This document shows, piece after piece, positions 4,436 through 55,220 of a DNA stretch of 64,000 nt. The DNA is taken from the IMG/VR virus record IMGVR_UViG_3300031660_000001. One strand, given 5' to 3'. Position 1 is the first letter of the stretch; every line of letters begins with the position of its first letter. Below the pieces are notes generated by a model. That model searched no databases, was not told where the DNA came from, and saw only the letters and a program-made list of their open reading frames with translations. The DNA comes from an uncultured virus (IMG/VR IMGVR_UViG_3300031660_000001). Taxonomy: Duplodnaviria > Heunggongvirae > Uroviricota > Caudoviricetes > Crassvirales. The position numbers were made by a program, and so were the translations under genes.

Positions 4436-4666
4436 ATGGATATTAGGAAGATTTCAATAGGAGCAGACTATAAGTCTGGAGCCATGCATTACATTGTAGG
4501 GCAAGACGTGTTAGGTGGTTCTTATTTTATTCATTTAATTCAACACGATCCAGAAGCAGAATCTTATAAAATTTGGATTGAAAAACCTGAAAAAAAAGAA
4601 ATTTTAATATGGAAAGAGTTTAAAACAACCTTACCTATATCCTTAGAATATAATATAAACTTTTAA
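4436..4666 (+). CDS. Hypothetical protein (IRKISIG.DYK..AMHY.VGQ)
   Basis: ORF track; tightly packed in the packaging operon. Confidence 0.75.
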   Translation: MDIRKISIGADYKSGAMHYIVGQDVLGGSYFIHLIQHDPEAESYKIWIEKPEKKEILIWKEFKTTLPISLEYNINF

Positions 4667-5229
4667 TGCAATCACCATACTCTTTTATTGTTCGTCCTGT
4701 AAAAGGGAGAAGATACGACAATATAAAAAACATAGGAGGTATTGATTTTATTACAAGCTCCTCAAAAGAAGATCATGTTGCGTCCAATAGATTTGGTGAA
4801 GTTATTGCTTTACCATTAGACTATAAGGGAGATGTAAAGATCAATGATATTTTACTAGTTCATCATAACGTATTTAAATTTTACTTTGACATGCAAGGGC
4901 GTGAGAAAAGTGGTAAGAGTTTTTTTATGGAGGATATGTTTTTAGTGGATAACGATCAGTTCTATTTATATTATCAAAACGGAAAATGGAATGCACATTC
5001 TAAGTATTGTTTTATTGAACCAGTTAAAGCTAAAGAATCATTTTTAGGAAAGACAGGTAAAGAAGAGCCTTTGGTTGGAAAAGTGAAATATATAAACAAA
5101 GAGTTATTACAACTAGGTGTAAATATAGGAGATGAAATATCTTTTACACCAGAAAGCGAATATGAGTTTTTAATTAACGATCAGAAACTTTATAGAATGT
5201 ATACAAATAACATCACAATGATTTTGTAA
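4666..5229 (+). CDS. GroES-like co-chaperonin with two tandem Cpn10-like domains
   Basis: Two repeats of pattern FI.P…G.V…V.IGD/IND.I/L; about twice the length of GroES. Confidence 0.6.
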   Translation: MQSPYSFIVRPVKGRRYDNIKNIGGIDFITSSSKEDHVASNRFGEVIALPLDYKGDVKINDILLVHHNVFKFYFDMQGREKSGKSFFMEDMFLVDNDQFYLYYQNGKWNAHSKYCFIEPVKAKESFLGKTGKEEPLVGKVKYINKELLQLGVNIGDEISFTPESEYEFLINDQKLYRMYTNNITMIL

Positions 5230-24209: not shown

Positions 24210-24216
24210 AATTTGT

Positions 24217-24234
24217 TATCTTTGCTTATATTTG
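24217..24234 (+). promoter_or_regulatory. Tandem -7 boxes TATCTTTG and TATATTTG
   Basis: Two TAnnTTTG copies 10 bp apart before the ATG at 24240. Confidence 0.6.
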
Positions 24235-24239
24235 AGCAA

Positions 24240-24767
24240 ATGCAATTACAAAAAAATCATGTTGGTCAAGAAATGTTAAAGAGTATACCTTTGATAAGAG
24301 GTATAATGTGGGAGAAGATAGAAGAGTTTGGAAAAATGATGGCTTCAAACATTGAAGGTTGTATTACACATACTCCTGGCAATAAGCAATCAAAAGAAAT
24401 GCAAGAAGCGTTTCCTGTTAAACAACACTTAGAAAACGGACTTTACACTAGAGAGGTTTTAATGCCTAAAGGAAGTTTAGTGATTAGTTTAATACATAAA
24501 CAAAATCATCCTTCTTTTTTTTTAGAAGGAGAAATGTCCATCTTAGCGGATAATGGTGAGGTTAAAGAGTTAAAAGCTCCCATGAATTTAAATACAAAAA
24601 TTGGAACTCAAAGAGTTGCTTACATGCATGAAGACTGTAAGTGGATTTGCGTGTATAAAACAGATGCAACTACTTTTGAGGAAGCAGAAGTTGATGTGTA
24701 TACTAATAATTACAGAGAGCTTCCGATAGAATTAATAAATAATAATAAATTATTATGGCAGGAATAG
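24240..24767 (+). CDS. Cupin-fold protein (ATG start preferred over TTG at 24213)
   Basis: H.LENGLYTREVLMPKG…IHKQNH…G…G.QRVAY.HED. Confidence 0.6.
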   Translation: MQLQKNHVGQEMLKSIPLIRGIMWEKIEEFGKMMASNIEGCITHTPGNKQSKEMQEAFPVKQHLENGLYTREVLMPKGSLVISLIHKQNHPSFFLEGEMSILADNGEVKELKAPMNLNTKIGTQRVAYMHEDCKWICVYKTDATTFEEAEVDVYTNNYRELPIELINNNKLLWQE

Positions 24768-25523: not shown

Positions 25524-27671
25524 ATGGCAGAAGAAAAAACTAAACTAGAAGATTACCAGCCAGGATTTGTTGATGAATCCCTGCAAAAAACAGTTAAAAA
25601 AAACAACTCTGTTAGAGTTAACAGTTATGACACTTATGTTTCTAGGAACGTAAGTGAAGATACTTTAAACTGGAATACAGTAGCTAAAACCATTACAGGA
25701 CAATTAAATGCTATTGCTAAAGACAGGAAAGATAGAAAACAAAACATAGTAGATCAAACTCAAAAAGCGATAGGCATCTTAGAAAATATTGATGACTATA
25801 CAAATGCTAATGTAAATAATGCTGTAATAGATATGGCCCAAGGCATTAAAGAACAACTTTTAATTCGTAACAAGTTAGTAGAATCAGGTGCTATAAAGCC
25901 TGTAGATTATTTAAAATTTGTAGAAGCAGCTAAATCTCAAATGAAGACTTGGGGAGTTGCATCTAAAAACTTTGAAACTGATTATGTAGCACATCTTGAA
26001 AGGCAAGAAAACAACACAGCTGCTGCTGATGAAACTTTTAATGCAGAATCCTATTATGGGTTTGGCAACATGAATGAGGTAAAAAGTTTTGTGTCTCCAA
26101 CAGGAAAGGCTTATTTGGTTAAAGTAGATCCTAAAACAGGAGCGATGCCAGATTTTGATAAAGAACCAGGTAAATTTTTACCTGTTCAAACTATGAACGG
26201 AAGAAATAAGTTTACTGCGGAAAGAATACAATTTGATATAAGAGAACAGGTAAAAATTCAAACCGCAGAAATGGGGGTATTTTTAAGAGAGTCTTTAATA
26301 GATACCGAGACTTTTGAAAATGGTGTTATTAAATTAACAAAAAAAGGATTAGCTGCATTAAACGATCCTTATAATAAAGATATAAAAGCTAAATGGTTAG
26401 CATACAAGAAGTCAGTTGAAAATAGAATTGTAGGAGAGGAAGATGATCAGCGTCTAGCTAATATTTTAGTTCAGTCACAATCAGGATATAATTATGCTAC
26501 TAGTGTTAAACAGTACAAGGAAAAATATGGAGATGACTTAAGTAAAATGATTATTTTAGATATGACAAACATGCCTCCTACTTACACCTTTGGGAAGGAT
26601 GGCAAAGAAGAGGAGAAGATGCGAGCAGAAGCTAAAAGATTAGTAAATGAAGAAATTGATTTCCAAATAGGAAGTTCTGAGGAAAAAACTTTAAGTAAGA
26701 AACCTCCCACTGATATTCAACTAAATCCTCCAAGTTCGACAGAAACAACGGATGCATTGAATAAATCTTCACTTGTAACGTTTATTAATGATATACAGAG
26801 TGGTGTGGATGGAAGTCAAAGTAAATTTGATCAAGATGAAGGTCAACTAGAAGTAGAGAGTATTCAAATGGTAGATAAAAACGGTAAAGTAACTGAAGAT
26901 GAAAGTGATGCTATAAGTATGAGGGTTGTAAAAATACAAGGCAATCAAGAGGTAACAACTAATATAGAATTAAGAGAAGAAATAGATGGGTCAAGAATTG
27001 ACAAGAGAAAGACTATTAAAGATAAAGATGGAAAAAATATTCCTAATCCAAATCTCGGAAAACCTAACGCACAATTAAGCAATGAACTAATATTAGAAGG
27101 TTATTTAGGAAATTTAGGTGTAAAAAATTCAGAAATTGATGACTACATGAAAGCTTATAAAGCAAGTGGAGGAAAAATAGGTGATTTCGTAGGGAAAAAT
27201 TATAAAAGAGAAAGTGTTAGGATTGTGGATACATCTGCGCAACCAATAGATAGAAAAAATGGAAAGGAAGGTACTACTGGATTAATTATTACTGAAGTTT
27301 TAGAAAACAAAGAAGATGAAAGTCCGTTTCAAGCACTCTTTGCTGCTGCTAATGTTAAAGATGCTTCTGATAAAGCCAAAAAAGACTTTAATCGATATAA
27401 AGTAAACATGATAAGTTCTTATATTAATGATGCTTTTGGAATATCTTTAAGAGGTAAACCATTTAATTTACGACTAAACGATGACGGAACTATTACTGTA
27501 AAATTTAATAACAGCGACATAACTCTGCCGAAAACTTTATCAGGGTATAATACTAGCGGTCAGCAAATGATAAGTGATATTGAGGATATATTAAATTTAG
27601 ATAGACTTCCTGTGGGAACTTGTGTAAACGGGAGAAAAAAACTTGCAGGTGGAGTTTTCGACCCTTGTTAA
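25524..27671 (+). CDS. Putative ejection/internal virion protein
   Basis: 715 aa, K/D/E-rich; position. Confidence 0.5.
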   Translation: MAEEKTKLEDYQPGFVDESLQKTVKKNNSVRVNSYDTYVSRNVSEDTLNWNTVAKTITGQLNAIAKDRKDRKQNIVDQTQKAIGILENIDDYTNANVNNAVIDMAQGIKEQLLIRNKLVESGAIKPVDYLKFVEAAKSQMKTWGVASKNFETDYVAHLERQENNTAAADETFNAESYYGFGNMNEVKSFVSPTGKAYLVKVDPKTGAMPDFDKEPGKFLPVQTMNGRNKFTAERIQFDIREQVKIQTAEMGVFLRESLIDTETFENGVIKLTKKGLAALNDPYNKDIKAKWLAYKKSVENRIVGEEDDQRLANILVQSQSGYNYATSVKQYKEKYGDDLSKMIILDMTNMPPTYTFGKDGKEEEKMRAEAKRLVNEEIDFQIGSSEEKTLSKKPPTDIQLNPPSSTETTDALNKSSLVTFINDIQSGVDGSQSKFDQDEGQLEVESIQMVDKNGKVTEDESDAISMRVVKIQGNQEVTTNIELREEIDGSRIDKRKTIKDKDGKNIPNPNLGKPNAQLSNELILEGYLGNLGVKNSEIDDYMKAYKASGGKIGDFVGKNYKRESVRIVDTSAQPIDRKNGKEGTTGLIITEVLENKEDESPFQALFAAANVKDASDKAKKDFNRYKVNMISSYINDAFGISLRGKPFNLRLNDDGTITVKFNNSDITLPKTLSGYNTSGQQMISDIEDILNLDRLPVGTCVNGRKKLAGGVFDPC

Positions 27672-27683
27672 AAAAAATAAAAT

Positions 27684-30600
27684 ATGAAGAAATATAAGTC
27701 TCCAGACGGAACTATTTTTACAGAAGCTGAAGCTATAAAAACTTATGGAGATAGGTTTCAGAGTTTTGTTGATGATGGCCAATTAAAATTAGTTGAAGGT
27801 GAAGAAGAAGTTATAGAAGAAGTACAAGAAGAAGTTGATGTTGTAACATATGAGTCTCCAGACGGAACTATTTTTACAGAGGCTGAAGCCATAGAAACTT
27901 ATGGAGATAGGTTTCAGAGTTTTGTTGATGATGGCCAATTAAAAAAAAAAGGCTCGTCCGACTTATCTGGCACTGGGCAAGAGGAAAATACGGAGTCTAC
28001 TACAGAAATCGTACAAGAAGATGGTTCTTTGGCTTCTGGTCAAAACCCAGCTAGGGAGTTAAGTTCAATCGAACAAATGTATCAAGAATCTGGAGAAGAA
28101 GCAGTTTATGAAACTGTAAACATTCCAGGGGGTGGTAGTTACAGAAAAAAAGTAGGAGTAGTTTATAATCAACCTTTGATAGATGAATTAATGGTTGAGC
28201 CTGGTATAAAGGCAGCTTTAGATGCAGGTAAAATCACTGCTCTTGATATTAAAACCGCTGCTAGTAATGATCCATCTAGTGCGAAATTCCGCGCGAAAGT
28301 TGATGAGTTTAGGGTAAAATCTTCTGAAGAAATTTCTGAAATATTAACTAATGAAAATTTAAATAAACCTTACATATATGAAGAGGCGGCAGTGGACGAT
28401 GATTTTATAGATAGTGTTTTTTCTAATGCACAACTTCAAGGACTGCAAAATTTTAATATAGAAGATTTTAATGGATTTGTTACTGAAAAGGGATACAAAG
28501 CTGATTATTTAAAAAGATTAGAGGATGGTAACTACGACTCTAACTCTTCTTTTCAATCTAAAAAAAACAAGAACTTAATGCTTCAAGTCTTGAAAGAGAA
28601 AGACGAATTAAGAATGATTACTTTGTATTTAGAAGAACTTCAGGAAAGAGATTTAAGATTTCAAGAATTACAATGGAGAAAAGATAACAAGGGGGTAAGT
28701 GCTTCTGATGTAAAATTTATTCCTGCGCAAATTATAAACCCCAATCAATTAAGTGAGTTTATTAAACAAAACATGCCCAACTTTGCGTCTTCAATTAACC
28801 AGCAAAGAGAAAAAGTTGAAGAGCAGTATAATAAAATGAAAAACAACAAACAAAATGGTTTGTGGGAATTTGCAAAAAGTTATGGGAATAGTTTTGATGA
28901 TAGATTAAACCAAGTTACAGCTTCTGTATTTGATTTTTTTGGAGATTCAGCCGCTACAGGAGTAAGAATGGCTGAAGAATATGAGGCTATGATGAAAGAT
29001 CCTAGTTTACAATACGGATATGTAAGTGGTAATGAAGTAGAAATAGGAGGAGTTAATTATTTAGTTAATGCAGATGGAAATGTTTTTGACACAGATGCAA
29101 AAGCTCAAGTAACTTCTGCGTTAGACCAAGAAAGTATAAAATTAATAAGAGAAGAAGCTAAAAAAAATGGAAAGGCTGGTACAAGTTTTAGCACGCAAGG
29201 TATTGCAATTGATACCGCTGGAGTTCTTGGATCTATTACTGTTGATTTATTTTTAACAAAAGGAGCTTCATCCGCAATGACGGTAGGAGGGGGAGCTTTA
29301 ACGCTTGGAGCAAGTTATACGGGAGGAGCAAAAATTGTGGCAAAAAGTTTAGATAAACTTAGAAGTGTGCCTGTTTCTAGAGGAATGTCATCATCTATAA
29401 TAGCACAAACAACCTTGGGACTTTCTCAAGGTGTAGAGTCAACTTTAAGAGAGGCTAAGGCAGCAGGATTAAATGATGAAGACGCTAAAGAATTAGCTAC
29501 AATAGCAGGATTAGAAATGGCAACTCTTTATGGATTAACAGGATTTATTTCTCCTCAAACCAAGGCTACAGAATTATTATTTGGAGGAATTAATAAAACT
29601 ACTTTAATAAAAGAAGCTCTAAAAAAATACACAAAAGAAGGAACAAAGGGTTTTGTGAATAGGTTTAAACAAGCGGGTAGAGATATAGCTAAAAATCCTA
29701 TTAACACAATTAAAAATGCTGGTAAAGAAATATTAGATTATGGTGGAGAAGGAGCAAAAGAGTTTATACAAGAGAATGTACAACAAGCAGGAGAAAGGTT
29801 TGTTGTTAATCCAAGTTTAAATAAAATTGCCGCAGAAAAAATAATGGCAGATACAATAAGTGGAGATGAATTTATAAATACCTCTATGTTATCTTTTGCG
29901 GCTGCATTCATAATGCCTGGTGCAGGTAAAGTGACATCTTCCATTACTTCTTTATTTCCAGGTAATGATATAGATAAGTTACAAATGTTAGGGCTTTTAA
30001 ATTCTAATAAAGACAAAACACTTCAGCTTTTAGATACTCAAGTAGATTCAGGTTTAATAACATCAAAACAAAGAAATGATGTTGCACGTCAAATGAAAAT
30101 ATATGCAGGAAGCATAAATTTGATTCCTAATAATTTTTCAGCTAGTACAGCCAATGCTGTTATGGATAATGTATACGAAATCTCAAGATTAGAAAATGAA
30201 AAAGAAGGTAAAGCTAAGGCGATTAAAGCAGATATAGATAAACAAATAGAGGCTTTAAATTTAGAGATTGATTCTGCTATAGCTTTTTCTAATTTTGATA
30301 AGGAAACTCAAAAAGACGAATTAAAGAAAGCTAAAAATGAATTACAAAAAAAAGATCCTAAAAAAATATTAACCGATAACGAAATTTTAAAATATGCCAT
30401 TCAAAAGCAAAGCACAGAGAACGTGGATGCAAAAAAATCTACCGAAGGTGGCAAAAAGGTGGATGAAAATGTACTCGACAACGAATCTACCGGAAAGGGT
30501 GACCCCGAAGGTGAAAATAAAAACAAAGAGAAATCCAAAACGAAAGTAGATAAACAAACAATAATACCTCCTAAAACTGACAAAGAAATAAAAGAAGGGT

Positions 30601-33600
30601 TAAACAAAGAAGGATACACTCCTAAAAAAGGAATGGTGACTTTTCGTGTGCCTATTATATCTCGTTTTTTTAAAAATCTAAAAATAGATGTAGCGGCAGA
30701 CAACCCTATAGCTAAAGTAACTAATCGTATTAATAGAACCTTAAAACAAGCGTTTACATCTTTAGGGAATAAACCTATTTCATCTGGCACAAGTAGTGAA
30801 AAATCTAGAAACGAACAAGCTTCTATATTATTTAAGGCAGGTAAAGCTGCTCAAACTTTTAATAGATTATTTAAAGTTACTAAAAATGAATCTGATTTAA
30901 CTCCGGAACAGTTACAAAAAATGAGTGATGATATTTCTGCGGCTCTTGAAGGTAAAGCTAAAAATTCTAAAGGAAAAGAAATAACTTTAGAACAATTTGT
31001 TAAAAATTATAGATTTAAAAACAATAAAAACAAAAAAAACAGAGGCTTAAGTCAGGGTTTTCAAAATATAATATTAAAATTAAGGTCTGATATAGATCAA
31101 ATGTCTCAAAGTATTCTTAATGAAGACGGTGCTCCTACTAGTGTAAAAGAAATTATAAAAACCAATATAGGAGCTTATTTAAATAAATCTTATAGGTTTT
31201 ATGAAGGTAATAAAAAAGGGGATGAATATATAGAAACACTAAGTGCTGAAGTTTTAAATGAGGCTAGAGCTTTTTTATCAAAAGATGAAATTATAATTGA
31301 TAACGCTAAAAAGTCTAGCAAAAAAGCAGGATTGAAATTTACAGATGAGTTGACACGTTTAGTAGATTTAGAAATAAATGAAATGTTAAGTGAAAAAACA
31401 ACAATTAATAGTTTTGGAACTATAGTTACTATGACGGGGAATAAACAGGGTGTTTTTAAGCAAAGAAAATTAGACAGTCCACAACTAAAGGCTTTATTAG
31501 GAGAGATAACTGATCCGATTGCTAAGTATATCACTACTATGTCTAAAACAGCAGCTATTCTTTCACAGGCAAAACACTATAACAATGTATTTAATTCTGG
31601 GAATGGTGTTTATTTATTTGAAAAAAACGATCCTAATAGGCCTAAAGGTAAAATGGATAAAATTGAAGGGACTAATTCTCCTTTAGACGGATTGTATGCA
31701 TATCCTGATGTTATAGAGTCAATAACAGGTTCTGGAGTAACAGACGTTAAACAAATGGTAAAAGGAATATATAATCCAAAAGAGAGTAATTGGGTTAAAA
31801 GAAGCTTAGATAGTTTAGTTGATGGAATTTTTGCTGTAGCCGTTTCTTTTCCTAGGGAAGCTAAAACAGTTTTATCTTTTTCTACTCAAATTATAAACTT
31901 TGGCTCGAATGTAAACTTTGCGGTTATTAATGGTCATTTACCTGTTTCTTTGGTAAATAAAAAAATGAGTATTAAATCATATACTACAGCAGCTAAAACA
32001 GTTATGGGTTCTCTTTTAAATAAAACAGATGAAGAATTGGAGGAAAAACTTGCTGAGTATTACGCAAAAGGTATTATAGGCCAAAGTGTGGACGTAAGAG
32101 AATTGAGAGATATAATGAGGGAAGGAGATGATGAAACGGATTTATTAAAAAGATTTAGTCAAGATCCTGTTTATAAAACTAGTAAATTTTGGGACACTGT
32201 TTTGTTTAAAAAGTTTAGAAAAGGAGCTGCTAAAGTGTATCAAGTAGGAGATGATTTTTGGAAAATAATGGGTTATGAGCAACAGATGGCTGTCAATGCA
32301 CCATTATATTATGATAAAAATCTTAAAGATTTAAACGCAAATGAATTAAAATTTGTGTCTGATAGAGCGGCAGAAATGGTTAAAAATCAATATCCTAATT
32401 ATGACAGGATTCCAAAGGCTGCTAGGTTTTTTAAATACCTTCCATTTGCAGGAAATTTTATTTCATTCCAAGCAGAGTCATACAGAACAGCTTACAATAC
32501 TGTATCAGGATCTTACAATATGTTAAATGATGGGAACCGATTAATTAAGGATGGGGAAAAAGACAAAACCACAGATGAGGGAAAAGAAAAGATTGCAAAA
32601 GGGAAAAGGTTTAGAAAAGAAGCTTTAAGGAAAATAGGAAACATAGCGGCTTATACAATGATGAGGGACGTTGTTTTATATCAAGTTGCTACAAGATTAG
32701 GAGGTAAAGTTTTAGGGGGCATAAGCTCTATGATAAAAGATGATGAAGAAGATGAAGAGAAAGATACTGTAGGGGGATTAAGTGAAAACGAAAAAGCAAT
32801 AAGAAACTTCTTGCCTGAATGGCAAAAAAACTCAAATGTAATTATAACACAAGCAAGTGATGGAACAATAAAATTAATAGATGCTTCTACTTTTGATCCT
32901 CATCAATTGCTTCAAGCTAACTTAAATGTTTTATTGCAATCAAAAAATTATTCAGATGCTATAAAGGGAATAATACAAGAAAACACTAAAACATTTGCTA
33001 GTAAAGATTTTGTATTTGACGCTATAAACAAAGCCGCTGATGCTTACAAAAGAACAGGGTATGATATGCCTTATAAAGTAGGAGGAGATACTAATTGGTA
33101 TGAGTTTCATAAAAAATTCCTTCAACCCGTTGTAGCAAGGGCGCTACTACCAGGAACAGTATTGCAGATTGAAGATGGGCTTGGCGATACCCCTATATCA
33201 GGGAGAAAACCAAAAGATCCAGATTGGAAAAAATTAGTTGGGATTAGAAGTACGACTGTTGATGTCTCTAGACAATTTTATTTTAATATACAGCCTAAAC
33301 AGGCAAAACAAAATCAAAAAGAAGCAACATTAAGAAAAGCATGGGGTGCTTTGGAAAGACAAATTAATAATAATGAAATAACTTTTGAGGAAGCTTCTAA
33401 AAGATTAAAAAAACTTACTACTACCGATGTTTCTAGTCTTAATGAAAGAAAAATGAAAATGCAAAAATACATAACAAAACAAATACAGTATGCTATTTTG
33501 TTAGGAGCTAAAGGAGAAGATCTTATTAATACATTAAAAGGGTACAATATAGGATTAAAAAAAGGTGATATAGAGGCAATAGGTAAAGGTGGAATGATTC

Positions 33601-33659
33601 CAATTCCTCAAATTCCTAAGAAATATTTTTCTAAATCTGAAGATAAAGGTGTGTTATGA
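27684..33659 (+). CDS. Giant putative ejection/internal virion protein (1991 aa)
   Basis: Position; Gly/Ala-rich membrane-like segment, EGAKEFIQE, GDDFWK…YPNY…PFAGNFISF.AE. Confidence 0.65.
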   Translation: MKKYKSPDGTIFTEAEAIKTYGDRFQSFVDDGQLKLVEGEEEVIEEVQEEVDVVTYESPDGTIFTEAEAIETYGDRFQSFVDDGQLKKKGSSDLSGTGQEENTESTTEIVQEDGSLASGQNPARELSSIEQMYQESGEEAVYETVNIPGGGSYRKKVGVVYNQPLIDELMVEPGIKAALDAGKITALDIKTAASNDPSSAKFRAKVDEFRVKSSEEISEILTNENLNKPYIYEEAAVDDDFIDSVFSNAQLQGLQNFNIEDFNGFVTEKGYKADYLKRLEDGNYDSNSSFQSKKNKNLMLQVLKEKDELRMITLYLEELQERDLRFQELQWRKDNKGVSASDVKFIPAQIINPNQLSEFIKQNMPNFASSINQQREKVEEQYNKMKNNKQNGLWEFAKSYGNSFDDRLNQVTASVFDFFGDSAATGVRMAEEYEAMMKDPSLQYGYVSGNEVEIGGVNYLVNADGNVFDTDAKAQVTSALDQESIKLIREEAKKNGKAGTSFSTQGIAIDTAGVLGSITVDLFLTKGASSAMTVGGGALTLGASYTGGAKIVAKSLDKLRSVPVSRGMSSSIIAQTTLGLSQGVESTLREAKAAGLNDEDAKELATIAGLEMATLYGLTGFISPQTKATELLFGGINKTTLIKEALKKYTKEGTKGFVNRFKQAGRDIAKNPINTIKNAGKEILDYGGEGAKEFIQENVQQAGERFVVNPSLNKIAAEKIMADTISGDEFINTSMLSFAAAFIMPGAGKVTSSITSLFPGNDIDKLQMLGLLNSNKDKTLQLLDTQVDSGLITSKQRNDVARQMKIYAGSINLIPNNFSASTANAVMDNVYEISRLENEKEGKAKAIKADIDKQIEALNLEIDSAIAFSNFDKETQKDELKKAKNELQKKDPKKILTDNEILKYAIQKQSTENVDAKKSTEGGKKVDENVLDNESTGKGDPEGENKNKEKSKTKVDKQTIIPPKTDKEIKEGLNKEGYTPKKGMVTFRVPIISRFFKNLKIDVAADNPIAKVTNRINRTLKQAFTSLGNKPISSGTSSEKSRNEQASILFKAGKAAQTFNRLFKVTKNESDLTPEQLQKMSDDISAALEGKAKNSKGKEITLEQFVKNYRFKNNKNKKNRGLSQGFQNIILKLRSDIDQMSQSILNEDGAPTSVKEIIKTNIGAYLNKSYRFYEGNKKGDEYIETLSAEVLNEARAFLSKDEIIIDNAKKSSKKAGLKFTDELTRLVDLEINEMLSEKTTINSFGTIVTMTGNKQGVFKQRKLDSPQLKALLGEITDPIAKYITTMSKTAAILSQAKHYNNVFNSGNGVYLFEKNDPNRPKGKMDKIEGTNSPLDGLYAYPDVIESITGSGVTDVKQMVKGIYNPKESNWVKRSLDSLVDGIFAVAVSFPREAKTVLSFSTQIINFGSNVNFAVINGHLPVSLVNKKMSIKSYTTAAKTVMGSLLNKTDEELEEKLAEYYAKGIIGQSVDVRELRDIMREGDDETDLLKRFSQDPVYKTSKFWDTVLFKKFRKGAAKVYQVGDDFWKIMGYEQQMAVNAPLYYDKNLKDLNANELKFVSDRAAEMVKNQYPNYDRIPKAARFFKYLPFAGNFISFQAESYRTAYNTVSGSYNMLNDGNRLIKDGEKDKTTDEGKEKIAKGKRFRKEALRKIGNIAAYTMMRDVVLYQVATRLGGKVLGGISSMIKDDEEDEEKDTVGGLSENEKAIRNFLPEWQKNSNVIITQASDGTIKLIDASTFDPHQLLQANLNVLLQSKNYSDAIKGIIQENTKTFASKDFVFDAINKAADAYKRTGYDMPYKVGGDTNWYEFHKKFLQPVVARALLPGTVLQIEDGLGDTPISGRKPKDPDWKKLVGIRSTTVDVSRQFYFNIQPKQAKQNQKEATLRKAWGALERQINNNEITFEEASKRLKKLTTTDVSSLNERKMKMQKYITKQIQYAILLGAKGEDLINTLKGYNIGLKKGDIEAIGKGGMIPIPQIPKKYFSKSEDKGVL
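27697..27944 (+). repeat. 92-bp direct repeat (27697-27788 and 27853-27944), 3 mismatches
   Basis: SPDGTIFTEAEAI.TYGDRFQSFVDDGQLK encoded twice. Confidence 0.95.
27941..27950 (+). other. A10 candidate slippage/frameshift site
   Basis: A10 inside the CDS; both alternative frames stay open for 34-36 codons downstream. Confidence 0.5.
30394..30549 (+). CDS. Nested +1-frame basic microprotein MPFKSKAQRTWMQKNLPKVAKRWMKMYSTTNLPERVTPKVKIKTKRNPKRK (51 aa)
   Basis: ATG in AT-rich context to TAG; local GC rise; resembles the MPFKS..QR.W small phage proteins (from recall). Confidence 0.7.
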   Translation: MPFKSKAQRTWMQKNLPKVAKRWMKMYSTTNLPERVTPKVKIKTKRNPKRK

Positions 33660-35869: not shown

Positions 35870-36109
35870 TTATCCTTTATATATTTCTGTTTTAAAACCA
35901 TAACTTTCTAGCTCTTTTATCCTATACTCTTGCAATTTAGAAACCTTGCCTGTTGGTTTTTTTATTTCCGAAAACAAAACATCACAGTTTTTAGGAAACG
36001 CTACAAGATCAGGGATACCATTTTTGTTAGTCTTAATTAGTTTAAGCACATAATACCCCTCAGCTTCTAATTCTTTAATTCTTTTATATTGTATCTGTTG
36101 TTCCGTCAT
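35870..36109 (-). CDS. VRR-NUC domain nuclease
   Basis: EQQIQ…GIPDL…FSEIK.PTG.VS.LQ. Confidence 0.85.
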   Translation of the reverse strand: MTEQQIQYKRIKELEAEGYYVLKLIKTNKNGIPDLVAFPKNCDVLFSEIKKPTGKVSKLQEYRIKELESYGFKTEIYKG

Positions 36110-37170
36110 TCTCCTAATACTTTTAAAAGAACATCAAGCATTTCAATAGTTTTTAAATTATGCATTACAAATTGTTTTCGGTTAAGAGTGCATTCAAATT
36201 CTGTTCTACCTTCGTATATTCTTTTTTCTACTGTTGTAATAGGTATTTTATACGTTTCTAAAACGTGTCTTGCAAAATCTCTTGTGGTTCTAAAATTTTT
36301 ATTGTCGTAAACGTGTCTTGGTTTGCGCTTTTCTTTTAACTCATTTCTTAATTCATCAATAAGTTTTTGAGTAAATATACTATACCCGTAAGTGTATTTC
36401 CCATATTCTTTTATGTACCAGTCTCCTAAAGTTTCTCTTTGTTTTCTTTGGTATTTATTATGTGTTTCGTGTCTGCATTTTTTACAAGTATTATCAAGTT
36501 TATGAAATTCTTTATTGATTTTAACTTTGTCGCAACCTTTACAATATTTTTCGCCATCGGTATATTTATAGTTCTTACGTCTTCCTACAGCGTAATTATT
36601 AATACATTCTTGGCACTTGCTAACGTCATTTGGAAAATTATCTACCACATCAATCTTGCCACACTTAGAGCATTCTTTATGTGTTCTATTATCGTAAAAC
36701 TCCTTATTTGTTTCATTTGCCTTTTTTAGATTATTCGGAGTGGCTATAATTGTTCTTGCGCTTTTAACCATATCAGTTTGTTTAGATTTTTTACGAGTAA
36801 CTTTTTTTAAGTTTTCAATTCTGTTATCTAAACATTTTTTATTTATATGCATTACACATTCATTCTTTAGAAAATCTATTTTTGGATAAAATGATTGAAA
36901 AACAAACCTACCAGATTGTTTGCCTTTTTTAAATATGGTTACTACAAGACCATCTATTCTACCATTTTTTGCCTTAATAATACTTTGTTTTAGTATTTTT
37001 TCCTCAACAATTCTCGGAGTCCCCCATCTTGTATTTACTTCACGCTGTAAAGACTTAATTCGTCCTAAAGAAGAAACTTCATAAATACCATCATATTCAA
37101 AGGCGTCTATCCATTTTTCATTTGGCAAATCTTCTAACTGAAAATTGTTATGTATCTGTTGTTCTGTCAT
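36106..37170 (-). mobile_element. NUMOD4 + HNH-like homing endonuclease gene with two Zn-finger repeats, flanked by a 20-bp repeat
   Basis: EKW…YDGIYEVSSLGRIKS; MHINK..LDN.IENL; CxxC pairs; repeats at 36090-36109 and 37151-37170. Confidence 0.75.
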
Positions 37171-37173
37171 GTT

Positions 37174-37584
37174 CTATATTATTTTAATTAAATTAGCAAC
37201 TATTTTCCAGTCTTCTGTTGTGCTATTATCTTTTTTTTTATATAACACACGAAAAGAATTTATAGCATCATTAATTCTTTGTTTCTTTGTTTTATTCTTA
37301 TTATTAAAATCTACAGGTAATCTATCTGTTAAATCCCATTCTATTACATTTCTTCCTGTTACAGTGCATAATCTTTCGCCTCTTTCATAAATTACTCCTA
37401 AATCTCGCAATTCCGTAAATCTTCCACTTTGATTTGTTTTAAGATTTTTATCATTAAAAACTTCTGAAGCCGTGCAGGGAGCATGATTAAAAATTGACTC
37501 ATATACCTGTAATCTTCTTTTGCTTAATAATCCTTCTTGTTTAATTTTATTAAAGCATTCTATTGATGTTTTTCTTGTAATCAT
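37174..37584 (-). CDS. Putative winged-helix DNA-binding protein
   Basis: VY..I…TA.EV…SGRFTELRDLG.I…R.CTVTGR. Confidence 0.55.
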   Translation of the reverse strand: MITRKTSIECFNKIKQEGLLSKRRLQVYESIFNHAPCTASEVFNDKNLKTNQSGRFTELRDLGVIYERGERLCTVTGRNVIEWDLTDRLPVDFNNKNKTKKQRINDAINSFRVLYKKKDNSTTEDWKIVANLIKII

Positions 37585-37600: not shown

Positions 37601-38833
37601 TTACCTAAGTGTAAGTAAATCTCTTTTAAAATGTCTAAGCGTATAATCTTTTTTATTCAATACACTTTTATAAATTTCCTTTTCAATACCACCTTTAGCA
37701 AATACCCAATATATCTTATTATACTTTCTGTCTTTAGTAGTCATCCTGTCTCTTGACTGCCAATAGCTAGTAGCACTAAAATCTATGTTGTAATATACTA
37801 GAGCTTCAGCCTGTTTTAAACTGATACCTTCTCGTCCTGAAACAATTTGCAAAGCTATAGATTTACTAGTAGAGTTAAACTCTTCTAGATCAGTACACAA
37901 CTGGTCTCCATACACTTGTTTTAATGCGTTGAACTCTTCTTTAAACTTATAAAATATACCAATTTTTACATCACCAAAATTGTCATTTATAAATTGAGCT
38001 TTAGTTAAATCTAACACCATAGACTTACCGGACTCAAACTTTACAGTGCCTGAATACAGCTGATGCGTTTTACTCATTAATTTTACTGCTGTATCAGCTA
38101 ATATAACTTCCTCCTTACCTTGTACCACTAAATCTTTAGTTAAATCTCTAATAATGTTTTTAACTTTATTAGAAACGTCTACATATAAGATTTCCTCATC
38201 GGTCTTAACTTCAAACCCAGCTTCTTTTTGAGTGTAAGATATTGTGTATGGTTTCATCTCTTCAATTATAGAGTCAAAGCCACCGCTATAATCATTAATA
38301 GTCATAGAACCAATCTTTTTTTGAGTCACATTAACATACTCATGAGCAAACTTATAAAAACTCTTGTATCGTTTAAACGGGTTGTTAGGTATTGAATAAA
38401 CTTGATGATACATCTGAGAGTAAGACTCTGGTGTTGGTGTCCCAGACAATAAAATAACATAAGGATTATTAATCATTACAAGAGACTTAACCATCTTTGA
38501 TCTACGGCTTGGTTTAGGAAACGCTCCCATGCCATGAGCTTCGTCACAGATAATCATATCCCACTTAATCTCCTCTATTTTATGTAGAGACTCATAATTG
38601 ACAATAGTAATATCGTAACTAAAACTGAAGTTGTTGTAATCATCTTGTATACTTGAAATTGCTTTTTTTTTGGTAATAAATAAAAGGTTTTGAACTGGCA
38701 ATAGGTTACTAATACTCAAACTCGTAAGTGTCTTACCAGTTCTAACCTCCATTGCAAGATATAAAAATTTATGTTTGTTTAAAACTTCTACTCCCTTTTT
38801 CGTAATTTCCTTTTGATAATCTCTAAGCTCCAT
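37601..38833 (-). CDS. SF2 (SNF2-like) helicase
   Basis: MEVRTGKT, DEAH, LSGTP, SGREGISL, QSRDR. Confidence 0.85.
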   Translation of the reverse strand: MELRDYQKEITKKGVEVLNKHKFLYLAMEVRTGKTLTSLSISNLLPVQNLLFITKKKAISSIQDDYNNFSFSYDITIVNYESLHKIEEIKWDMIICDEAHGMGAFPKPSRRSKMVKSLVMINNPYVILLSGTPTPESYSQMYHQVYSIPNNPFKRYKSFYKFAHEYVNVTQKKIGSMTINDYSGGFDSIIEEMKPYTISYTQKEAGFEVKTDEEILYVDVSNKVKNIIRDLTKDLVVQGKEEVILADTAVKLMSKTHQLYSGTVKFESGKSMVLDLTKAQFINDNFGDVKIGIFYKFKEEFNALKQVYGDQLCTDLEEFNSTSKSIALQIVSGREGISLKQAEALVYYNIDFSATSYWQSRDRMTTKDRKYNKIYWVFAKGGIEKEIYKSVLNKKDYTLRHFKRDLLTLR

Positions 38834-48897: not shown

Positions 48898-49062
48898 GGT
48901 AATAGGACTACCCTTGATAGTAAAAGCCAAACAATCTGAAAGAAAAATTTATGTTCCTCTGTTGACCTCTGAATATTTTCGGTTTCCTTTTTAGCGTCTC
49001 GTCTCGTATGAAGACATATAACCCTAAACCTCTATATATGTAATGCAAAAAAAAATTTTTAC

Positions 49063-49699: not shown

Positions 49700-51298
49700 A
49701 TGAAACAATCATACATTCCAAAAGACTTAACGTTTGACAATGAAGGTCGCTCAAAATTGATCAAAGGAATTTCTAAAATATCTAAAGCAGTTAAGAGTAC
49801 CTTAGGCCCTAGAGGCCGCACTGTTCTAATCGAATCTCCAGAACATCTTGCAGGTATCACAGTGACTAAGGATGGTGTGACTGTAGCTAATTCAATCTTC
49901 TTGGATGATCCAATAGAAAACTTAGCTATACAGATGATGAAAGATGCTGCTAGTAGAACTGCCCAGCAAGCTGGTGATGGTACCACTACGGCAATCGTTT
50001 TGACCGAGGCTATTGTAAATGCGGGTGAGACTCACTTAACTCCGGAGCATAATGTAACTGAGGTTATTAAATACATAAATAAATTTAAAGATAATTTGAT
50101 TGAAAAGCTTGAGAAGGGATCTAAAAAGATTACTAAGTCTAGGTTATTAGATGTTGCTACCATATCGGCTAACAACGATAAAGAGATTGGATCAATTATA
50201 GCGGATGCTTACAAAAAAGTTGGGAATGATGGGATAGTTACCGTGGAGAAGAGTATGAATCATGAGACGTATGCTGAGGTTACTAACGGGATTAAAGTAG
50301 ATCGTGGATATACATCCAACTTATTTCTAAACAACCAGCGTAAGGATGAATGCATTATGGAGGATGTAATGGTTCTAGTGTGTGACCAGGAGATTAATAA
50401 CATCTTGCAAATTGAGAATGTACTTAAGCCTATTATACAGCAAAACAAAAAACTTTTAATGATTGCGCCTTGTTCGGCTAATGTAATTAATACACTTGCC
50501 GCTAACGTGGTAAGAAACGGACTGCAATTATGTAATATTGTTCCTCCAAACTTTGGATACAAGCAGCATGAGCTGATGCAAGACATAGCATTTGCGGTTG
50601 GAGCGAAATACTATTCAGAAAAAACAGGAGATGACTTAAGTTTACTAAGTCTAACCGACCTAGGCCATGTAGATAAAATTATAGTTGGTAAATCCACTAG
50701 TGTTTTAATCAAAGATGCACCTATAACACAAGAAACTACGGATCGTATAGCTGAGCTTAGAGAGCAGCAAGAAGCTACAACCTTCCAATCTGACCGAGAT
50801 TTCATTAACGAACGTATAGCAAGCCTTGCAGGAGCCATAGGCTGTATCTATGTTGGTGGAAATAGTGATATTGAACAAAAAGAAAAATTTGACCGAGTCG
50901 ATGACTCGGTATGCGCTGTGCGCAGTGCTATGCAAGAAGGAATTATAACTGGAGGAGGGTTAGCTTTGTTCAATACAGTAGATAATTTAAGTTCTAGTGC
51001 AACTAACTCTAACCAGGCAGTGGCATTTAAAATACTAAAAGAAGCGGTGAAGGTGCCTTTGAAACAAATTATTATTAATTCAGGTAAAAATCCTAATGAT
51101 ATTATTGTTTTATTTTTACCAGAGAATCCTGACCACGGTTATGATGTAAAAAACGAAAAGATGGGAGACATGTTTAAGATGGGAGTAATAGATCCCCTTA
51201 AGGTTACTAAGAATGCATTAATTAATGCAGTGTCTGTAGCAACGACAATACTGTCCACTAACGCAATAGTAACACACGCTAGAGCACAAATAACTTAA
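49700..51298 (+). CDS. groEL: Phage chaperonin GroEL
   Basis: TLGPRGR, TKDGVTVA, AGDGTTTA, ISAN, GGG.AL, GVIDP.KV; no GGM tail. Confidence 0.95.
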   Translation: MKQSYIPKDLTFDNEGRSKLIKGISKISKAVKSTLGPRGRTVLIESPEHLAGITVTKDGVTVANSIFLDDPIENLAIQMMKDAASRTAQQAGDGTTTAIVLTEAIVNAGETHLTPEHNVTEVIKYINKFKDNLIEKLEKGSKKITKSRLLDVATISANNDKEIGSIIADAYKKVGNDGIVTVEKSMNHETYAEVTNGIKVDRGYTSNLFLNNQRKDECIMEDVMVLVCDQEINNILQIENVLKPIIQQNKKLLMIAPCSANVINTLAANVVRNGLQLCNIVPPNFGYKQHELMQDIAFAVGAKYYSEKTGDDLSLLSLTDLGHVDKIIVGKSTSVLIKDAPITQETTDRIAELREQQEATTFQSDRDFINERIASLAGAIGCIYVGGNSDIEQKEKFDRVDDSVCAVRSAMQEGIITGGGLALFNTVDNLSSSATNSNQAVAFKILKEAVKVPLKQIIINSGKNPNDIIVLFLPENPDHGYDVKNEKMGDMFKMGVIDPLKVTKNALINAVSVATTILSTNAIVTHARAQIT

Positions 51299-51300
51299 TT

Positions 51301-51540
51301 ATGGCACACGAACCACATGCATTTGAAAATCAAATCTTTCAACACTTTAGAGATAATGCTAAGAAGATTAATAACTGTATTGAATTTTTAACAGAACACA
51401 ACTACACTGTTATAGATTTGGAAGGAGAAATTATCACAAAAGATAATTTAAAGAAACAAGATAAATTTGATTTAGACTTTAAAGAATCAAGCAACTACAG
51501 GATACCTAAACTAAAAAAAAATAATGAAACCAATAGGTAA
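51301..51540 (+). CDS. Hypothetical protein between groEL and groES
   Basis: ORF track. Confidence 0.65.
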   Translation: MAHEPHAFENQIFQHFRDNAKKINNCIEFLTEHNYTVIDLEGEIITKDNLKKQDKFDLDFKESSNYRIPKLKKNNETNR

Positions 51541-53324: not shown

Positions 53325-53525
53325 ATGGCAAAGAGTAAAAAATTTATTGGATTAGATAAAGAACAAGATAATTCTTTAGAAGTCTATAAAAAAAACATGG
53401 CTCTTAGGGCTATAGAATTAAAGCAAAGAATAGTAAATGTTGCAGAGCTTAATAAAATGTTAGAAGAGAAAGCTGATAAAGACGCAAAACTTAAAAAGAA
53501 AAATGGCAAAGCAAAAAAAAAGTAA
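53325..53525 (+). CDS. Basic hypothetical protein
   Basis: ORF track. Confidence 0.6.
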   Translation: MAKSKKFIGLDKEQDNSLEVYKKNMALRAIELKQRIVNVAELNKMLEEKADKDAKLKKKNGKAKKK

Positions 53526-55055: not shown

Positions 55056-55220
55056 ATGAAATTGTTAATAATGACAGACTGGAAACTATACGCTCTTAAT
55101 AGCGCTGCACTTGGACTATCTTTAACGGAAATAGAAACGAGTCTAAAGATAATATTACTTCTTTTGACAATAGGTTATACTGTTCACAAATGGTTAAAGA
55201 TAAAAAAAAATGATAAGTGA
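55056..55220 (+). CDS. Putative small holin with two in-frame starts (55056 and 55071)
   Basis: MKLLI-MTDWKLYALNSAALGLSLTEIETSLKIILLLLTIGYTVHKWLKIKKNDK; overlaps the endolysin start. Confidence 0.6.
   Translation: MKLLIMTDWKLYALNSAALGLSLTEIETSLKIILLLLTIGYTVHKWLKIKKNDK

Follow-up and report, generated by a model that had tools for sequence, protein, structure and literature searches.

In a giant late gene of an uncultured tailed phage (IMG/VR record IMGVR_UViG_3300031660_000001; Crassvirales), of which a stretch of 64,000 nucleotides (nt), hereafter the window, was analysed, an uninterrupted run of ten A (A10) probably serves as a site of programmed recoding into the -1 frame, most likely through slippage of the RNA polymerase from A10 to A11. 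The comparative data show that the run is conserved at the nucleotide level, that the -1 frame behind it has no start codon, is depleted of stops and evolves under purifying selection, and that open reading frames (ORFs) of the predicted architecture are present in protein databases. The original prediction, made from the letters of the window alone, held that this one gene yields a protein of 1991 amino acids (aa) plus one or two proteins of about 125 aa; its central inference is supported by strong comparative evidence as far as the product of the -1 frame is concerned. The features on which the argument turns are the following.

27684..33659, + strand: giant late gene of 1991 aa, the last large gene of the structural operon (from the ORF).
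27693..27785, + strand: repeat unit 1, about aa 4-34 (from the translation and an AlphaFold model).
27849..27941, + strand: repeat unit 2, about aa 56-86, the last base of its final codon beginning the A-run (from the translation and an AlphaFold model).
27941-27950, + strand: A10 homopolymer (TTA AAA AAA AAA G), at which slippage or a shift is proposed to occur, read from the sequence as ...caatt-A10-ggctcg...
27950..28054, + strand: putative -1 tail ORF, 34 codons and TAG, with a net charge of +9 and rich in Arg, Trp, Phe, Tyr and Gly (from the translation, alignment A3 and selection tests).
27952..28062, + strand: +1 open stretch, 36 codons and a stop (from the translation; ratio of the proportions of nonsynonymous and synonymous differences, pN/pS, 0.85).

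As proposed here, the 5' end of the gene would hold a cassette made of two acidic repeat units, the A10 run and a start-less -1 ORF of 17-43 codons. The DNA read as written would give the 1991-aa protein, and a fraction of expression would shift to the -1 frame at the run and terminate 34 codons further on, giving a short product of about 123 aa that joins the acidic repeat head and a Lys run to a basic, aromatic, Gly-containing tail. This tail could be reached through one extra A in the mRNA or through a -1 shift of the ribosome. In the first and favored case the RNA polymerase, probably that of the host, would slip on the A10/T10 tract, whose length approximates that of the 9-10 bp RNA-DNA hybrid, and add one A; the A11 mRNA would then be translated normally into the short protein, and the length of the run would set the ratio of short to long product.

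In the window, A10 occupies codons 86-90 (TTA AAA AAA AAA GGC) of the ORF 27684..33659, as originally described, and the 48% GC claimed for the sequence that follows is exact (0.48 for 27951-28050 against 0.32 for the gene, a value reached by only 0.26% of its 100-nt windows). The unusual frame-0 codons cited with it (ggc tcg tcc ggg acg) are all present but are not contiguous, their true order being ggc tcg tcc gac tta tct ggc act ggg ... acg. Frame 0 is here, as had been stated, a low-complexity acidic linker, composed of Ser, Thr and Gly besides its acidic residues, and lies behind two copies of a repeat of about 31 aa. The translations given for the alternative frames agree letter for letter, with 34 codons and a stop at 28052-28054 for the -1 frame and 36 codons and a stop at 28060-28062 for the +1 frame. 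A10 is the longest A-run of the window. By itself, and in the window alone, it is not beyond chance: about 2.2 runs of at least ten A are expected in 64 kb under a first-order Markov model and 1.1 if letters are taken as independent and identically distributed, and the histogram of run lengths decays smoothly. Both alternative frames are open for at least 34 codons at only 7 of the 10,161 codon positions of 15 large + strand genes, and one of the three stretches of at least 30 codons that are open in all three frames in these genes begins exactly at the A10 run.

Relatives were sought with the window protein, then with alignment A1, in IMG/VR and in metagenome contigs. The scan yielded, for the full-length family, 25 metagenome loci at 35-79% identity, two of them truncated at the 5' end, as well as 5 IMG/VR contigs and 54 distant loci that share with the window protein only its C-terminal ~800 aa; a scan of genome contigs with alignment A1 found no relative. 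The first clade with the 5' part comprises the window and 27 loci, which fall into 14 clusters at less than 97% nt identity around the site (35-79% aa identity). Exactly A10 is found in all 28 records, at codon 60-105. The three Lys that it encodes in the window (K87, K88 and K89) are the first invariant columns of the protein alignment and the sole ones in the first 124 residues, the N-terminus being otherwise unalignable, and A10 exceeds in length every other invariant nucleotide stretch of the ~7-kb codon alignment of the whole gene, in which 13% of nucleotides are invariant. Only 8 of the 22 other invariant Lys columns are AAA throughout, and A occupies the third position throughout in only 2 of 39 Leu/Val columns. 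In this clade 81-90% of the Lys codons are AAA, and the run has been retained across saturated synonymous divergence (pS ~0.58). Moreover, in the L038 lineage the ten A lie in another codon phase (gAA AAA AAA AAt) and encode EKKN, so that it is the length of the run that is conserved and not the KKK peptide. In most giant ORFs of the A10 families the run is the sole one of at least nine A; no run of this length occurs in the giant ORF of any of the 54 distant loci, nor in gp123 of Cellulophaga phage phi18:3.

Other homopolymers are present in the same gene. A second A-run at codon ~180, also encoding KKK, is A9 in one assembly (L040:10385) and A8 in another (L039:10385), where the frame is broken. 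Assemblies thus capture homopolymer indels, which makes the invariance of A10 more telling. Further A10 or A9 runs occur in a single lineage at a Q-K-K-N site (L038:3385, codon 273), and in one subclade (L023-L030 and L044) at a KKK site at codon ~850 (alignment column 992); a scan of the -1 and +1 frames along the whole gene found no alternative-frame ORF at either of these two places. Elsewhere in the window, the coding strand of - strand genes has A9 at 38663-38671 (gene 37601..38833) and 37231-37239 (gene 37174..37584), and T9 is found at 24515-24523 within the + strand gene 24213..24767; one coding homopolymer of 9 nt lies about 55 codons into a SNF2-type helicase gene. The number of 9-nt homopolymers in coding sequence is about that expected from the Markov model. 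Four more A9 runs (51513-51521, 53513-53521, 55202-55210 and 49047-49055) lie at or just before gene starts or between genes, and may represent A-rich translation-initiation regions.

In all 14 first-clade representatives, 32-39 codons of the -1 frame are open behind the run. No ATG, GTG or TTG is found in any of them from the upstream -1 stop, which lies 3-13 codons before the tail, to the tail itself, and the tail can therefore be entered only from frame 0. Shuffles of synonymous codons that keep the acidic frame 0 leave the -1 frame open at least as long with a P of 0.0001-0.053 in 13 representatives (the L039/L040 cluster was left out). Variability at the three frame-0 codon positions is 0.33/0.43/0.36 after the run versus 0.36/0.28/0.48 gene-wide; the most variable one after the run, position 2, is the wobble position of the -1 frame, which places this stretch in the top 0.8% of 1943 windows. 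Changes such as GGT/GCT/GAT/GTT or TCT/TTA radically alter frame 0 and leave the -1 frame with W/C-F-[FLI]-G-x-[WF]. Over the 38 columns after the run, the Nei-Gojobori method gives a pN/pS of 0.71 in the -1 frame, as against 0.88 in frame 0 and 0.85 in the +1 frame; elsewhere in the gene the -1 frame has 1.2-1.33 and frame 0 has 0.53-0.64. The -1 value belongs to the lowest 1% of 2287 windows, and a scan of 2169 windows shows this to be the sole stop-free -1 window of the gene with a pN/pS below 0.75. Sequences of different clades are 35% identical in the -1 frame, 29% in frame 0 and 31% in the +1 frame. Judged from these shuffles and substitution patterns, the -1 frame after the run is under purifying selection and depleted of stops. 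The outcome opposed to the original prediction, in which homologues have Lys triplets interrupted by AAG and early stops in both frames, is the reverse of what is seen, the Lys codons being unbroken and stops scarce in the -1 frame.

These data leave little room for a reading without recoding, in which a chance AAA-rich Lys triplet in an AT-rich genome is followed by frames that are open as a mere by-product of an acidic, GC-richer linker, and which we find scarcely credible. One to two runs of at least ten A are indeed expected in the window, AAA dominates the Lys codons of the first clade, and the original prediction itself raised the caveat that acidic frame-0 codons make the alternative frames basic by default. 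However, this reading is already contradicted by the sequence comparison: A10 is exact despite saturated synonymous divergence, codon bias and a change of phase, the shuffles that preserve the acidic sequence seldom leave the -1 frame open, and both the wobble pattern and pN/pS indicate the -1 frame. It is also highly improbable that the conserved element is no shift site and represents instead a KKK peptide motif of frame 0, such as a cleavage or binding site, or a signal in DNA or RNA (an A-tract bend, a promoter element, a structure). The invariance of K87-K89 and the recurrence of a D-G-S-L-x-S-G pattern in frame 0 would fit a peptide motif, yet L038 has EKKN with A10 intact, and frame 0 is nearly neutral here, as its pN/pS of 0.88 indicates. 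As for a nucleic acid signal, no conserved RNA structure was found, and a promoter and terminator scan of 27000-31000 showed no excess of sites and no + strand terminator after the -1 stop. Neither a peptide motif nor such a signal explains a start-less, stop-free and selected -1 ORF beginning with the run.

The +1 frame does not share these properties. Of the stop depletion expected in both alternative frames, the part concerning the -1 frame holds; for the +1 frame the synonymous-codon shuffles give P values of 0.008-0.10, and in L038 this frame is shut after 2-3 codons. No selection on the +1 frame after the run was detected, its pN/pS lying within the range usual for the +1 frame of the gene. 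Of the one or two additional proteins proposed, the -1 product is thus supported and the +1 product, which shows no selection and is closed in L038, is not; the +1 open stretch is probably a tolerated by-product of A9 or A12 transcripts.

The aligned tails (alignment A3) begin with K-K-K-R, followed by an aromatic stretch, G-[KR]-[YF]-G and then [WC]-F-x-G-x-[WF]. Their net charge is +6 to +10, with 6-10 aromatic and 0-1 acidic residues, and that of the heads is -3 to -21. A hidden Markov model (HMM) of the tail has one match per family locus at this place (34 loci and the window) and one more in L106, and it found no match elsewhere among all six-frame peptides of all loci. An AlphaFold model of the tail built on alignment A3, with three beta strands and a predicted local distance difference test (pLDDT) score of 61, is too weak to be used. 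Two repeat units precede the run in every relative, with a very divergent sequence. For aa 1-89, AlphaFold predicts a beta-hairpin and an 18-residue helix in each unit and a disordered acidic linker joining both (mean pLDDT 77.5); a Foldseek search of this head model against the PDB gave nothing better than E = 2.5, and Pfam and PHROG scans of head and tail gave sub-threshold noise only.

A profile of the tail searched against 1.84 billion representative proteins has eight matches, seven of which are proteins of 78-106 aa that begin with two repeats, continue with two to four Lys and end in the tail. One of them (P0004) is exactly the head of locus L033, KKK and the -1 tail of L033, that is, its A11 reading. 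Both the predicted charges and database proteins of this architecture agree with the short protein as first conceived, with an acidic repeated head and a cationic aromatic tail. Each of these short proteins is found on one or two contigs from ENA or Logan assemblies, which may derive from RNA or from DNA. A word-based search of the 40-aa -1 ORF against 5.8 billion proteins (lengths 'longer') had given no candidate, and the short ORFs were found later with the profile.

Another short protein (P0005) led to a second clade of 15 IMG/VR loci; a third one (P0008), used as sole query in IMG/VR, retrieved nothing. BLASTP of the window protein against the giant ORFs of 6 of these 15 loci gave no hit at E 1e-3 or better, and the ORFs tested carry LPD38 or LPD23 domains. 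Exactly A10 is present in 12 of the 15 loci, at the same place and in the same phase after two repeats, and the start-less -1 ORFs that follow it have 17-43 codons and the same Y-G...W-F-x-G-F character. In all nine genes examined it is the sole run of at least nine A, and in four of these nine, whose GC content is 0.51-0.53, no more than 19-31% of the Lys codons are AAA. Counting 28 records of the first clade and 12 of the second, none of the 40 assembled records with the run deviates from A10, and the conservation in homologues that the original prediction called for is borne out. The three other second-clade loci (L112, L113 and L114) possess the two repeats at the N-terminus but lack both the A-run and any ORF resembling the tail, which makes them a natural control for the contribution of the cassette.

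Runs of nine A or T cause bacterial RNA polymerase to slip very efficiently, according to Atkins et al. 2016 (PMC5009743), with one or more A added in diminishing proportion and a hybrid of 9-10 bp. Three features of slippage sites are found together here, namely an A-run of at least 9 nt in coding sequence, its conservation among diverged homologues, and a selected start-less -1 ORF. The same short -1 product could be made from an unchanged mRNA by programmed -1 ribosomal frameshifting on A_AAA_AAA, which we consider rather unlikely. Ribosomal shifting on A-runs is established (Atkins 2016, PMC5009743), and the openness, selection and lack of start codon of the -1 ORF suit it equally. We infer that the polymerase is the likely route, because all ten A are fixed though seven are enough for the ribosome, and this even in the phase of L038 and in the GC-rich genes that prefer AAG, that is, against codon bias. 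Moreover, conserved RNA structure is lacking downstream: RNAalifold finds 0 conserved pairs from -30 to +120 (14 sequences), of six sequences folded singly, three do not outperform shuffles (z +0.7 to +1.7) and the other three have hairpins in different registers. Database ORFs with the tail in frame further show that molecules reading as a changed run length exist, and the frame under selection is that of one extra A, the expected main alternative product of slippage.

Several observations weigh against polymerase slippage, or against the strength of the evidence for recoding as a whole. The heptamer A_AAA_AAA is in the phase required by the ribosome in all 14 representatives (L038 included) and in 12 second-clade loci, and a moderate hairpin lies 0-6 nt 3' of the run in three of the six single folds (z -1.66 to -1.94). 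The two Logan contigs from RNA runs that cross the run (X19 record 7, from this phage, and X17 record 6, L038-like) both have A10 and no indel. These RNA data are assembled contigs of four RNA runs (X15, X16, X17 and X19), which drop minority A11 forms and in which DNA carry-over is possible. The short database ORFs, if they come from DNA, indicate length variation at the DNA level. A cruder test of synonymous differences, the variation that the original prediction expected to be reduced, has an observed to expected ratio of ~0.5 but places the stretch at only the 6.5th percentile of windows. Stop depletion in the second clade is modest (P 0.05-0.16), the P values of individual sequences are not independent since the sequences are phylogenetically related, and all the DNA compared consists of metagenomic assemblies, no cultured member having been found.

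Length variation at the DNA level would be the basis of a contingency locus, in which replication slippage toggles between A10, with the giant protein ON, and A9 or A11, with the giant protein OFF and the short product made, as a form of bet-hedging. Homopolymer cases have been reported in coliphages (bioRxiv 10.1101/2025.10.21.683753), nine database proteins (7 clusters) have head and tail in one frame, each on one or two contigs, and the second run of the same gene does vary between assemblies, with A8 in L039 and A9 in L040. However, the invariance of A10 in the 40 assembled records runs counter to such toggling, and a plain OFF switch leaves the selection on the tail and its motif shared across clades unexplained, so we regard this possibility as improbable. 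With the reported coliphage loci the present site has in common a homopolymer within a phage coding sequence that can shift the frame; there, as far as the source describes them, the length varies in the DNA and the gene is turned off, whereas here a fixed length of ten is associated with a conserved peptide in the shifted frame.

Recoding by polymerase slippage at A10 can be compared with several known systems. In dnaX of Thermus thermophilus, a 9-nt A/T run of hybrid length within a long ORF directs, through extra A in the mRNA, the synthesis of a shorter product that shares the N-terminus (gamma versus tau) at a set ratio (PMC5009743). The alternative frames stop there almost at once and the tail has no function, in contrast to the selected -1 tail of 17-43 aa described here; in addition, the present case concerns a phage virion gene and a shift after only 60-130 of ~2000 codons. 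P3N-PIPO of potyviruses is also encoded by a conserved, start-less overlapping ORF, reached by the insertion of one A at a conserved A-rich site and giving an N-terminal fusion with a new C-terminus (PMC5009743), but it involves an RNA virus, an RNA-dependent polymerase, a short motif and low efficiency, as opposed to a double-stranded DNA phage, A10 and presumably the multisubunit enzyme of the host. Productive slippage of RNA polymerase that alters the C-terminus is likewise described for spa13 and mxiE of Shigella and for other bacterial genes with A/T runs (PMC5009743); the Shigella cases are type III secretion genes on chromosome or plasmid, in which slippage extends or restores the frame. 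In dnaX of E. coli and G/GT of phage lambda, the latter a phage late gene, two products share an N-terminus at a fixed ratio, and the heptamer is in phase as it is here. They differ by using A_AAA_AAG or G_GGA_AAG, 7 nt assisted by stimulators (a stem-loop, a Shine-Dalgarno-like sequence), instead of ten invariant A with no conserved structure, and the shifted product of lambda G/GT is the longer one. No example of productive slippage in a phage virion gene was found in the literature searched, and a full-text search (supplements not covered) found no paper describing this site.

The host of the recoding site appears, by homology, to be the gene of a giant virion protein of the 'polyvalent' type in a marine podophage of flavobacterial type. 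The giant protein (1991 aa) stands among virion late genes, after those for terminase, portal, capsid-region, muzzle and fibre proteins, as is typical of polyvalent proteins, which are giant and multidomain and for which Iyer et al. 2017 (PMC5512222) proposed packaging and injection. The C-terminal ~800 aa of the window protein match gp123 of Cellulophaga phage phi18:3 (Pachyviridae; 23% identity over aa 1156-1739 of the window protein), which is annotated as a virion structural protein from tandem mass spectrometry, so that presence of the window protein in the virion is suggested by homology only. The same region matches giant metagenomic phage ORFs with LPD5, LPD1, ART-PolyVal, InPase, GGDEF, SNF2, strawberry-notch-like helicase and methylase/methyltransferase domains, of which LPD, ART-PolyVal, InPase, helicase and methylase are shared with polyvalent proteins (PMC5512222). 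By contrast, the window protein itself has no recognised Pfam domain, and scans of Pfam, PHROG and PDB sequences gave no family match for it; in the accessible text of Iyer et al. 2017 (PMC5512222), no cassette of repeats, A10 and hidden tail is found and the term 'slippage' has 0 occurrences. Two other assignments were considered: a lead to LPD38 was not confirmed, and an early guess that the 1991-aa gene encodes a crAss-type virion RNA polymerase was dropped for lack of any family or PDB match. An N6_N4 DNA methylase insert (aa ~1404-1610 of the giant ORF) is present in three members of the A10 family (L034, L035 and L041) and absent from the window protein, indicating that the giant protein gains and loses effector domains.

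The shared head could be used by both products, for example for incorporation into the capsid, and the tail may bind DNA or membrane, which would make the short product a small internal or co-injected protein. A head acting as sorting or assembly module of both products is perhaps the most economical idea, and a role as assembly chaperone is equally conceivable. More tentatively, and with somewhat less than even confidence, the two-repeat head, A10 and -1 tail may form a portable leader cassette acquired by unrelated giant injected phage proteins, in which slippage fixes the ratio of giant to small product, both are loaded into the capsid through the head, and the Arg/Trp-rich product travels with the DNA as a DNA-binding or membrane-active protein. 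If true, this would be the first programmed transcriptional slippage in a virion-protein gene of a tailed phage and in phages of Bacteroidota-type hosts.

Only a handful of genes in DNA-based systems are known to undergo productive transcriptional slippage. The comparative data indicate a deeply conserved instance here, which concerns the phage virion proteins that form the largest and least understood class and is shared by two or more clades of marine phages without BLASTP similarity between their giant proteins. The short product is invisible to gene callers, which implies that the annotation of such phage proteomes is incomplete. A run length fixed strictly at ten A, equal to that of the hybrid, may offer a clean natural system to study how run length sets the slippage ratio, and the shared head a handle on the sorting of giant injected proteins into capsids.

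The giant gene contains a second hidden ORF, at 30394-30549 (+ strand, +1 frame, 51 codons). This ORF starts at a conserved ATG of its own (product M-P-F-K-S...), and its basic end is conserved too. It occurs in all 14 representatives, with a pN/pS of 0.35 in the +1 frame versus 1.53 in frame 0 and a variability of 0.47/0.30/0.23 by frame-0 codon position, and it is the sole stop-free +1 window of low pN/pS in the gene (minimum 0.18). Its product belongs to no Pfam family; it has a single weak hit in PHROG, and the databases contain just two near-identical proteins. A possible likeness of its MPFKSKAQ start to a known small-protein family found no support in Pfam and was dropped. From these patterns it looks like an overprinted gene in a linker of Lys, Glu, Ser and Thr. 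Such a separately initiated overlapping ORF, the second in the same gene, suggests that low-complexity linkers of giant phage proteins are birthplaces of new genes.

The window as a whole is a phage genome of ~33% GC. The + strand carries the structural operon, with genes for the large terminase, the portal, a virion structural protein of the capsid region, a 1599-aa muzzle-type protein, a protein with a crAss_MUZ_C domain and S74-type fibres; 3' of it lie a replication module on the - strand, then lysis genes and GroEL-like and GroES-like genes. The portal is closest to those of uncultured and flavobacterial podophages (70% for MW202828; 47-50% for Maribacter phage Panino and Flavobacterium phage elemo), and Cellulophaga phages match as well. 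Among the 55 ORFs of the window that were scanned, none was recognised as a phage RNA polymerase, and the RNA polymerase of the host is therefore the likely transcriber. The chaperonin genes, at 49700-51298 and 4666-5229, encode a GroEL-type protein (PHROG 5725, Pfam Cpn60_TCP1) and a GroES-like protein (PHROG 13932). Finally, an HNH/NUMOD4 endonuclease gene (36106-37170, - strand) lies between the exonuclease and helicase genes and adjoins an ORF of 79 aa whose match to an endonuclease family is confined to the middle of that family, which suggests the insertion of a homing endonuclease.

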